From NCBI RefSeq assembly GCF_054482595.1, contig NZ_CM137008.1: 64,000 bases of DNA. One strand, given 5' to 3'. Position numbers: made by a program. This document shows, one piece after another, positions 15,001 to 18,000 of this stretch. Every line of letters begins with the position of its first letter. The first letter of the stretch is position 1.

Positions 15001-18000
15001 GCCTTGTTGCTGGACTCTGTAGCGAACGATAAAGCTGCCCTGATTGCGAAATCTCGCGATACCTTTATTCGTCTGCTGAACGCCACCCCGAACGGTGTTA
15101 TCCGCAATTCCGACGTGGCAAAAGGTGTGGTCGAAACCTCCCTGAACGTCGGTGTGGTGACCATGACTGACAATAATGTAGAAATTCACTGCCTGATCCG
15201 TTCTCTGATCGACAGCGGTAAAGACTACGTGGTGAGCATGCTGGATTCGCTGGGTAAACTGGCTGGCGCGAAAACCGAAGCGAAAGGCGCATATCCTGGC
15301 TGGCAGCCGGACGCTAACTCTCCGGTGATGCATCTGGTACGTGAAACCTATCAGCGTCTGTTCAACAAGACGCCGAACATCCAGATTATCCACGCGGGCC
15401 TGGAATGTGGTCTGTTCAAAAAACCGTATCCGGAAATGGACATGGTTTCTATCGGGCCAACAATCACCGGTCCACACTCTCCGGATGAGCAAGTTCACAT
15501 CGAAAGCGTAGGTCATTACTGGACACTGCTGACTGAACTGCTGAAAGAAATTCCAGCGAAGTAATTATTTGATTTGCTGCCGGATGGCGTTTAATCGCCT
15601 TCCGGCAGTTTCATCCTTCATTATCCTTCGATAAAAGCCATCCCTGTAAACGTTCGTCGCGGGTTGCCACGTTCAATCTGGTGATGGAACATTCGCCGCT
15701 GCGATTTCAGCACTGCGCTATTTTCCTGTTGCTGTTGCTCCAGCTTCCAGGCAATCAGCAATCGTGCCAGCCGCTTGTTGGCATGCTGGCTGCGCTCTGA
15801 CTGAACCTTCACGCTAATCCAGGTAGCCAGATGCGTGGCGCGCGCCGCCGAATCGGTTTTATTGACATGTTGACCGCCCGGCCCCGACGAACGCAGCGTC
15901 TCATAACGGACCGCGTCGGATTGTTCCTGCTCATCAGCAGTAAAACGCCCAATGCCCAGAAACCAGTTTTTACGCCCATGATGTGGGCGATACGGACTCC
16001 GACAAATCCACTGAATAGTGCCATACCAGCTTTCGCTTAATGCCCATGCGTTGTCGCCATTCAGAGAAACCAGCGCTGAACGCAGGGTGTCAGAGTAACG
16101 ACCTGTTTCTGTTTCCAGCACTGTTACCGCGACGTCTTGTCGGGTAAAAACGACCAACAGAGAAGAACGCTGCGCCAATCGGGTAGCCGCGTCCGGGGTG
16201 TAAATCTGGCATCCCCACTACGCGCTGCATGTTGGGTAAATTTGCCGTGGTGTGTAATTGTTGGATCGCTAAACTCTCGATCCACAGGTCATCAGATGCG
16301 ATGGTAAATACCGCATCGGATAAGGGACGAATATATTTGCCCATGTACCATTCCATTTATACTCGTCATACTTCAAGTTGCATGTACTGCGACTACGTTC
16401 GTTCACCCCAGTCACTTACTTTAGTAAGCTCCTGGCGATTCACTCGCTTGTCACCTTCCTGCAACTCGAATTATTTAGAGTATATAAATATTAAAAATCA
16501 GGAAATGGCAGACGAATCCAGGGCAAGAAAAAAAGAATTAATCCTGGAAAGGTCTGCAAAGAGTCATTGATAAAGGATTTGTCATGATTTACCTCCTTGC
16601 AGTTTGTGGAATAAGAAAACGCGCACATACCAGGCGGGCGTTATTTTCATTGCAAGCTGGATTTAATGTTGCGGTTTATATCGCATAGAAAAATTAGTAA
16701 ACCACGCTCCCCGGCATTCAACGCGCTGCTGCTTAACTGTCTGAAAACCATAACGTTCAAAAAAGGGTTTGCGGTTATGCTTGCGTCCACCGTAAGTTCG
16801 GATTCAGACTTAATCAAAGGTTTTAACAAAGCGCTGGCAACCCCACGGCGGGTGTATTCAGGGTCAACAAATAACATATCGATATAATGTTCAATGCGGG
16901 AAATAAAACCAACCGGTTGTGCATTAATGACTGCAACCCGCACTTGTGATTTCGCGAGTTTCTCCTTCCAGCGAGATTCGTCAATCTGCGCCCAGGCGGC
17001 AATTTGTTGTGGTGAATAATGCTGACTTGCGGTCATCATAACCGCTCTAATGAAAATAGCGCATAGTTGCTGAAAATCGCCAGGCTGATAGTTTCTTATT
17101 TGTATGTTATTCATAATCCCAGCACCAGTTGTCTTTCCATTTGCGGGTCAAGCAACGTCACATGCAGCCCCACCAGACGCACACCTCGCCCGCCGCGGCG
17201 TTCATCCCAGGTTTTACGCGCGGTGGCGATTAAGTCAGCTTTATTCAGCCTCGGCCAGACGTGCTCCTGGGTGGTTTGCTGAAAATCGTCGAACTTTAAT
17301 TTCACCCCCTGGCGAGCAATCAGTAAATCAGGTTTTACCTTTGCCAGACGGCGTTCAAGTTCCGGATACAGCCGCTCGATAATCGCCTCACATTCAGACC
17401 AGTGATGAATATCTTCCGCCATCGTGCGTTCCACGCCGACGGATTTTCGCAACCGTTCGCTGTTAACATCGCGTTCGTCAATCCCCTGACTACGCTCCCA
17501 CAAAATGCGGCCAAATTTGCCAAAGCGTTTAAGCAGTATCACCAGATCACACTTTTGTACATCACCGCAGGTCCGCAGCCCCATCGCTTCCAGTTTTGCC
17601 GCCGAGACTTTGCCGACGCCGGGGATTTTTGCCAGTGATAAGGTTTGTAAAAATGCCGGAACTTCTGCCGGCGTAATCACAAACTGGCCGTTGGGTTTAT
17701 TCATGTCGGAGGCGATTTTGGCGAGAAACTTTACTGGTGCCACGCCCGCAGATGCCGTCAGTTGCAGCTCGTTGAAAATCGTCTGGCGGATTTCCTGGGC
17801 GATGAGGGTCGCAGAACCGTGGCAATGGACGCTGTCGGTGACATCGAGATAGGCTTCATCCAGTGACAACGGTTCAATGCGCGAGGTGTAGCGCGAGAAG
17901 ATTTCACGGATATGATTTGAGGCTTCTTTGTAGGCGTCAAAGCGCCCCGGAAGCAAGGTGAGATGTGGGCATAATTTGAGCGCCATCCCTGTCGGCATAG

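Follow-up and report, generated by a model that had tools for sequence, protein, structure and literature searches.

The window analysed here, a 64,000-nt stretch of contig NZ_CM137008.1 (assembly GCF_054482595.1), carries a dinB operon in which dinB is followed on the same strand by an orthologue of yafP with nothing between the two genes. The features of the locus are as follows, in positions of the window.

16663 to 17114, minus strand: yafP (GNAT N-acetyltransferase), a frameshifted allele of 452 nt versus 453, whose shifted ORF continues to 16647 and codes for 155 aa (from alignment with K-12 and translation)
16768 to 16770, minus strand: site of the frameshift, AAA here and AAAA in K-12, GF66.1 and XH990 (from alignment)
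17111 to 17114, minus strand: ATGA overlap of the dinB stop and the yafP start, the junction remaining after loss of yafN-yafO (from reading of the sequence and alignment with K-12)
17111 to 17117, minus strand: ATTATGA, a 7-nt repeat of which one copy is left (from alignment with K-12 and four-gene loci)
17111 to 18166, minus strand: dinB (DNA polymerase IV), intact, 351 aa (from the ORF listing and the NF002677 match)
18170 to 18178, minus strand: Shine-Dalgarno region of dinB, GAGAGGTGA (duplex with the 16S 3′ end of −10.1 kcal/mol)
18183 to 18198, minus strand: LexA (SOS) box of the dinB promoter, CTGTATACTTTACCAG (from identity with K-12)
18190 to 18217, minus strand: sigma-70-like promoter, TTCTCA, 16-nt spacer, TATACT, overlapping the LexA box

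The product of dinB matches the DNA polymerase IV equivalog model NF002677 over residues 1-345, scoring 543.5 bits where the cut-off is 256. Its translation contains D8 (HVDMD) and D103-E104 (SLDEAY), the catalytic acidic residues of DinB, with both the N-terminal motif and the SLDEAYLD motif readable, and a gene identical to it is annotated as dinB in GF66.1. At the 3′ end of the gene, the minus strand reads CTG GGA TTA TGA, overlapped by ATGAATAAC. The dinB stop codon TGA lies at 17113-17111 and the yafP start codon at 17114-17112, yafP opening as ATG AAT AAC one base ahead of the TGA, such that 4 nt are common to both coding sequences. The downstream ORF (16647-17114, minus strand, 155 aa) matches NF007338, the YafP-type GNAT equivalog, with 254.1 bits for a cut-off of 146. 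A tblastn search of the whole 64-kb window revealed no homologue of YafN or YafO (best E about 1), and no adjacent pair of genes coding for a PhdYeFM-type antitoxin and a YafO_toxin protein (PF13957) was found in the window, both families being recognised in the K-12 proteins. An earlier note on this DNA had claimed that dinB adjoins yafP directly through a 4-nt overlap and that the yafN-yafO toxin-antitoxin pair is missing. Both statements agree with the sequence, and the identification of the downstream ORF as yafP, on which they depend, is borne out by the model match and by the alignment with K-12 described below. Since the junction is a homology-based structural difference and not a statistical pattern, chance is not at issue.

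For comparison with K-12 we used positions 248000-256500 of MG1655 (NC_000913.3), annotated as lfhA′, ′lafU, dinB, yafN, yafO, yafP, ykfJ, prfH and pepD. The flanks are about 98% identical, and the alignment that the earlier note had proposed revealed a sole large difference, a segment of 759 bp containing yafN and yafO that is absent from the window. The four-gene operon of K-12 (b0231-b0234) resembles the locus of the window in its 351-aa DinB, in the start codon of yafP and in an identical 80-nt stretch containing the promoter and the LexA box, and both genomes share the same flanking scars, namely the Flag-2 deletion scar (lfhA′/′lafU) on one side and the ykfJ-prfH scar on the other. In K-12, however, the additional 759 bp code for the YafN antitoxin (PhdYeFM family) and the ribosome-dependent mRNA interferase YafO, both lacking in the window, and yafP comes after yafO, whereas in the window it follows dinB directly. 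In K-12 the heptamer ATTATGA stands at both ends of the 759-bp segment, one copy at the dinB stop (GGGATTATGA|TGTATAC) and the other at the yafP start (TTTATATTATGA|ATAAC). Two copies, 759 bp apart around yafN-yafO, are kept in all nine four-gene loci checked, and the repeat around the lost segment is thus 7 nt long, longer than the 4 nt published. A flanking repeat of 7 nt would equally suit a target-site duplication. The ends of the 759-bp segment bear no terminal inverted repeats, and the K-12 annotation shows neither transposase nor integrase within or beside it.

The two-gene dinB-yafP arrangement of this E. coli is already known and ordinary, being neither rare nor new. The two-gene operon, its ATGA overlap, its distribution among phylogroups and its origin by deletion were described by Gutierrez, Elez, Clermont, Denamur and Matic (Nucleic Acids Res 2011; PMC3105422). 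Their two-gene operon, found in CFT073 and about half of natural isolates, shares with the window the same ATGA overlap, the absence of yafN and yafO and the LexA-controlled dinB promoter, as well as its neighbourhood, with lafU upstream and rtcB/prfH remnants and pepD downstream, and differs from it in that yafP of the window is frameshifted (A4 to A3). According to these authors, all B1 strains have the two-gene and almost all group A strains the four-gene form, B2 and D are mixed, the four-gene state of E. fergusonii implies at least three losses, and two ATGA sequences probably recombined to give the two-gene operon (PMC3105422). What we add is minor: the 7-nt repeat, the states of outgroups, the homoplasy and a lineage-specific frameshift in yafP. 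The survey of E. coli suggested in the earlier note, carried out with a 200-nt probe centred on the junction against 5,426 complete E. coli genomes, found the junction uninterrupted in 2,569 of them (about 47%), showing that it is not unusual; elsewhere the probe matches as two halves. The K-12 yafN-yafO segment was present in 2,847 of these genomes, and hardly any genome belongs to neither class. Members of the two-gene class include 55989, STEC strains, strain 131 and clone D i2, and those of the four-gene class K-12 and O157:H7/O55:H7. Junctions identical to that of the window were seen in all 11 other two-gene loci examined. The dinB and yafP genes of the window are closest to K-12-like alleles (23 differences over 1,419 nt) and not to those of strain 131 and clone D i2, which are putatively B2-like, their phylogroup being assumed.

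The 80 nt upstream of the dinB ATG, LexA box included, are identical in the window and K-12, in line with the earlier claim that the box at 18183-18198 is intact. This box, CTGTATACTTTACCAG, which we take to be the dinB LexA operator established in K-12, has the form CTG-N10-CAG and overlaps a promoter-like site. No match to the idealised 20-mer palindrome TACTGTATATATATACAGTA with up to three mismatches occurs in the window, as expected for the weak dinB box, and because this box is too degenerate for such a test we relied on its identity with K-12. Likewise, the −35- and −10-like hexamers match the consensus at 9 of 12 positions, but as consensus matches are no commoner here than in shuffles, the promoter was assigned from its position and its identity with K-12. 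LexA binding and damage-inducible transcription have been documented for K-12 and CFT073 (PMC3105422), and transcription of the two-gene operon would still start from the unchanged LexA-repressed dinB promoter. Past the end of yafP, a scan for intrinsic terminators detected none; its two matches inside coding sequence are no more than shuffles yield.

Pairing with the 16S 3′ end upstream of yafP is weak in both arrangements (−5.5 kcal/mol in the window and +0.4 kcal/mol in K-12, compared to −10.1 kcal/mol for dinB), and in the four-gene operon the same yafP ATG, 9 nt past the yafO stop, has an even weaker Shine-Dalgarno sequence. With or without yafNO, then, no Shine-Dalgarno sequence serves yafP itself. 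Its translation in the two-gene form is therefore most likely coupled to that of dinB by termination-reinitiation at the ATGA, where ribosomes would stop at the dinB TGA and restart at the overlapping ATG. The lack of a convincing Shine-Dalgarno sequence ahead of yafP would also suit another route to YafP in the two-gene operon, in which ribosomes leave the dinB frame by programmed frameshifting instead of reinitiating. Frameshifting was proposed by Gutierrez et al., who showed production of a YafP-YFP fusion, which in CFT073 was synthesised upon SOS induction and in stationary phase (PMC3105422). A C-terminal YFP fusion, however, does not discriminate between the two mechanisms, and since yafP retains its own start codon, which sits right on the dinB stop and serves the four-gene operon too, we rate frameshifting as very unlikely. 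ATGA overlaps are classically read by termination-reinitiation. They are also the commonest gene overlap in E. coli (PMC3105422), which again argues against frameshifting.

The earlier note missed a 1-nt deletion inside yafP (16768-16770), which reduces a run of four A to three. The frame is shifted past residue 116, beginning with the replacement of K117 by N, and the C-terminus ...KPFFERYGFQTVKQQRVECRGAWFTNF(S/Y)MRYKPQH is replaced by NPFLNVMVFRQLSSSALNAGERGLLIFLCDINRNIKSSLQ, i.e. ...ITAKPFFERYGFQTVKQQ...KPQH becomes ...ITANPFLNVMVFRQLSS...SSLQ. The last 34 residues of YafP are thereby replaced, including the C-terminal GNAT motif ‘FFERYGF’ (KPFFERYGF...), and putting one A back into the gene yields exactly the protein of GF66.1. 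Consistent with such a loss, the NF007338 match is limited to profile positions 1-131 of 150, the PF13673 score is 50 bits compared to 72.8 for K-12 YafP, and the matches to PF00583 (Acetyltransf_1) and PF13508 (Acetyltransf_7) end at about residue 100 instead of 124-125 in K-12. Motif A (R/Q-x-x-G-x-G/A; here RRGVASAL) is kept in the shifted ORF, whereas the C-terminal part with the motif B helix and strands is lost, which leaves the GNAT fold incomplete and yafP no longer intact. Because motif A is retained and the scores still exceed the family cut-offs, the frameshifted protein may conceivably have some residual function. By its architecture the locus is a two-gene operon, probably with a derived null allele of yafP. 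Given the replacement of the 34 C-terminal residues with the GNAT motif, functional Pol IV is probably all that the operon supplies. For this lineage, the appropriate annotation of yafP is that of a pseudogene.

The frameshift affects a short homopolymer, an A4 run with C3T6 after it, and exact 71-mers and 48-mers of the A3 allele, only exact matches being counted, occur in none of the RefSeq complete genomes, GF66.1 included, as might be expected if the frameshift, or even the junction itself, were an assembly or sequencing artefact of this record. The allele is nevertheless not unique, as a public protein collection contains the 155-aa product without any difference, along with a 130-aa version of it that begins at an internal start. 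The frameshifted gene is present on at least 24 contigs, and five independent loci are 100% identical to positions 16300-18400 of the window (2.1 kb), the A3 run included, while a sixth (L031 of the set L026-L031) carries the same A3 allele at 99.95% identity. The perfect matches comprise GCA_965257005.1 and GCA_009822715.1 (NCBI), one ENA metagenome assembly and several Logan read-set assemblies. Moreover, GF66.1, isolated from chicken meat in Switzerland and the nearest complete genome, differs from the window over 64 kb by six substitutions and a single indel, the A of yafP, which speaks against homopolymer errors being frequent in this record. Sequencing error was rejected as the source of the frameshift on account of this lone indel and of the independent assemblies that share A3. 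With the junction recurring in thousands of complete genomes (see above) and the frameshift in independent public assemblies, we regard an artefact as exceedingly improbable. The same sequence in at least five independent public assemblies identifies A3 yafP as a genuine circulating allele.

A strain with the short operon has one SOS-induced mRNA-interferase toxin fewer than K-12, and results on stress-induced mutagenesis and persistence obtained in K-12 therefore need care in such strains, as was pointed out in 2011. In CFT073, yafP has been described as sensitising cells to nitroaromatic genotoxins, an effect that, with yafP a pseudogene, is probably missing from the present lineage. Beyond correct annotation, the importance of these observations is small.

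How the two-gene form arose can be judged in part from related species. Species-representative genomes searched with K-12 YafP returned four Escherichia loci and an unrelated planctomycete GNAT; the search missed E. fergusonii, E. albertii and E. marmotae, probably through its requirement for exact 8-residue peptides. The four loci are listed below.

L007, E. whittamii: four-gene
L004, a record titled E. coli SCPM-O-B-8794, second GTDB species representative: four-gene
L006, Escherichia sp. MOD1-EC7003: two-gene, with an ATGA fusion identical to that of the window
L005, Escherichia sp. E1V33: dinB-yafN-yafP, with yafO alone removed between TTAT microhomologies

With four Escherichia loci the sampling of outgroups is thin, the state of E. 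fergusonii is taken from the published work (PMC3105422), and as MOD1-EC7003, a non-coli Escherichia, is also two-gene, the outgroups alone give no unambiguous polarity. The locus of E1V33 resembles that of the window in that a microhomology-bounded deletion has occurred in the same operon and dinB and yafP have been kept, but only yafO is gone, between ...AACTTAT and ...ATTTAT, leaving an orphan yafN, whereas both genes are missing from the window. Decay of yafO was also seen in KE47, in which it has an internal stop, and in MINF_8D, in which IS1 is inserted. Together with the yafO-only deletion of E1V33, these cases indicate that the module has repeatedly decayed and been lost, and not that it was gained.

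The opposite polarity would make the two-gene arrangement ancestral and the window the original state, with yafN-yafO inserted elsewhere as a mobile toxin-antitoxin cassette that duplicated its target ATTATGA. A perfect 7-nt direct repeat at both ends of the segment resembles a target-site duplication, mobility is frequent among toxin-antitoxin modules, Klebsiella plasmids carry distant YafO homologues (about 38% identity), and the two-gene form of MOD1-EC7003 would fit as well. Yet the 759 bp lack the inverted repeats, transposase or integrase of a mobile element, and the plasmid records with near-identical copies are F-prime-like or of chromosome size and contain K-12 chromosomal DNA. The range of yafNO identity in E. 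coli (95-100%) equals that of the flanks, fitting a long-resident segment, the four-gene form is found in E. whittamii, in L004 and in E. fergusonii (PMC3105422), and loci that have decayed in part, the yafO-only deletion for instance, favour loss. Insertion therefore appears improbable.

We consider it highly likely that the two-gene allele arose by deletion of yafNO at the repeats, with an intact LexA-repressed promoter and coupled translation of yafP, and that yafP was frameshifted later. From an ancestral dinB-yafN-yafO-yafP operon, the 759 bp with the toxin-antitoxin pair would have been lost by recombination or replication slippage between the ATTATGA direct repeats, which span the dinB stop and the yafP start and of which a single copy would remain after the deletion. 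The loss of one nucleotide from the A4 run of yafP would be a second, later event in the lineage of this strain.

Damage to yafP is not confined to the A3 allele. In other E. coli the frame is broken at another point, the T6 run a few bases further on, giving products that read ...AKPFLNVMVF...; judging from the protein sequence, this allele, present in many other strains, corresponds to T6 to T5. Among complete genomes it occurs in one exact case, NCTC9104. In addition, yafP is disrupted by an IS in 55989 and has an in-frame internal deletion in Res13. As read from these sequences, yafP appears to have been repeatedly inactivated at the A4C3T6 tract, and elsewhere by an IS or an in-frame deletion.

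The genealogy of the two forms was examined on neighbour-joining trees of dinB and yafP from 22 loci across the identity range, a small sample picked for spread. Two-gene and four-gene alleles are intermixed on these trees: the window and XH990 lie nearest K-12, strain 131 lies nearest the four-gene UPEC-455U, and 55989 lies beside the four-gene E1 and Res13. The dinB+yafP tree calls for 7 changes of the yafNO state, with 5-8 across 300 bootstraps, which is not below the number for shuffled labels (mode 7-8). In these 22 loci the indel state is thus unlinked to the dinB/yafP genealogy. This implies that the deletion has happened more than once at the repeat, that recombination has been frequent, or both, between which a sample of this size and choice does not discriminate. 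Tentatively, and with more doubt than confidence, the presence or absence of yafNO might be viewed as strongly homoplasious, either because the ATTATGA pair is a recurrent deletion hotspot or because the two forms are a long-lived polymorphism shuffled by recombination, the parallel and repeated inactivation of yafP hinting at lineage-specific selection against YafP as a protein toxic without Pol IV.

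The minus-strand yafP gene of the window loses its reading frame after residue 116, where an A4 run is 1 nt short (16768-16770). This A3 deletion was found neither in the near-identical genome GF66.1 nor in any RefSeq complete genome; the allele is matched in several independent public assemblies with 100% identity across 2.1 kb.

The segments on either side of dinB-yafP contain the following features of the window:

15621-16356, minus strand: remnant of an rtcB(ykfJ)-prfH deletion
16360-16480 (core 16400-16421), minus strand: ERIC/IRU-type intergenic repeat, between yafP and the rtcB remnant
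about 18237-20706: deletion scar of Flag-2 (lateral flagella), with a lafU remnant on the minus strand and an lfhA remnant on the plus strand
22531-23072, plus strand: dinJ-yafQ, an SOS-linked toxin-antitoxin pair neighbouring the dinB-yafP region

K-12 carries the same Flag-2 scar, rtcB-prfH remnant and ERIC/IRU-type element. The dinB-yafP sequence of E. coli XH990 is identical to that of the window except for a wild-type A4 run, and a contig assembled from a Logan read set (L030) matches the window including the A3 frameshift. Since both retain an intact motA and a full-length lafU upstream, the dinB-yafP allele occurs on both Flag-2 backgrounds, a distribution that suggests recombination near dinB-yafP. 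On the other side, E400634, strain 131, clone D i2 and M160133 differ from the window in that their rtcB and prfH genes, downstream of yafP, are both intact; rtcB-prfH is a further presence/absence polymorphism within the same 5 kb. The core of the intergenic repeat agrees at 21 of 22 positions with the ERIC2 primer sequence, and shuffles gave no chance matches.

The neighbouring dinJ-yafQ pair has been kept, with an intact DinJ translation of 86 aa and yafQ identified from the annotation of GF66.1, so the loss of yafNO does not belong to a wider disappearance of toxin-antitoxin modules from the region. A third form of the operon, dinB-yafN-yafP, was found in Escherichia sp. E1V33 (L005, 3121-3501), in which yafO alone has been deleted between short TTAT microhomologies, leaving yafN as an orphan antitoxin. 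Lesions were also found in other loci, in locus coordinates:

E. coli 55989 (L010), 2599-4389: yafP interrupted by an IS4-family element
Res13 (L018), 2504-2860: yafP cut in frame to 357 nt
KE47 (L021), 2950-3348: internal stop in yafO

The dinB-yafN intergenic region of K-12 (L001, 3948-3995) contains three imperfect repeats with ATTATG, spaced 12 nt apart, one of which is a further ATTATGA directly 5′ of yafN. These repeats may represent a YafN operator, and may also serve as alternative deletion end-points; none of the loci seen uses such an alternative end-point.

In the GF66.1 annotation, a type VI secretion cluster that includes an Rhs/VgrG module occurs at the offset corresponding to about 40000-60000 of the window. 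That annotation gives the tssH of GF66.1 an internal stop and marks its VasL-domain gene as frameshifted.
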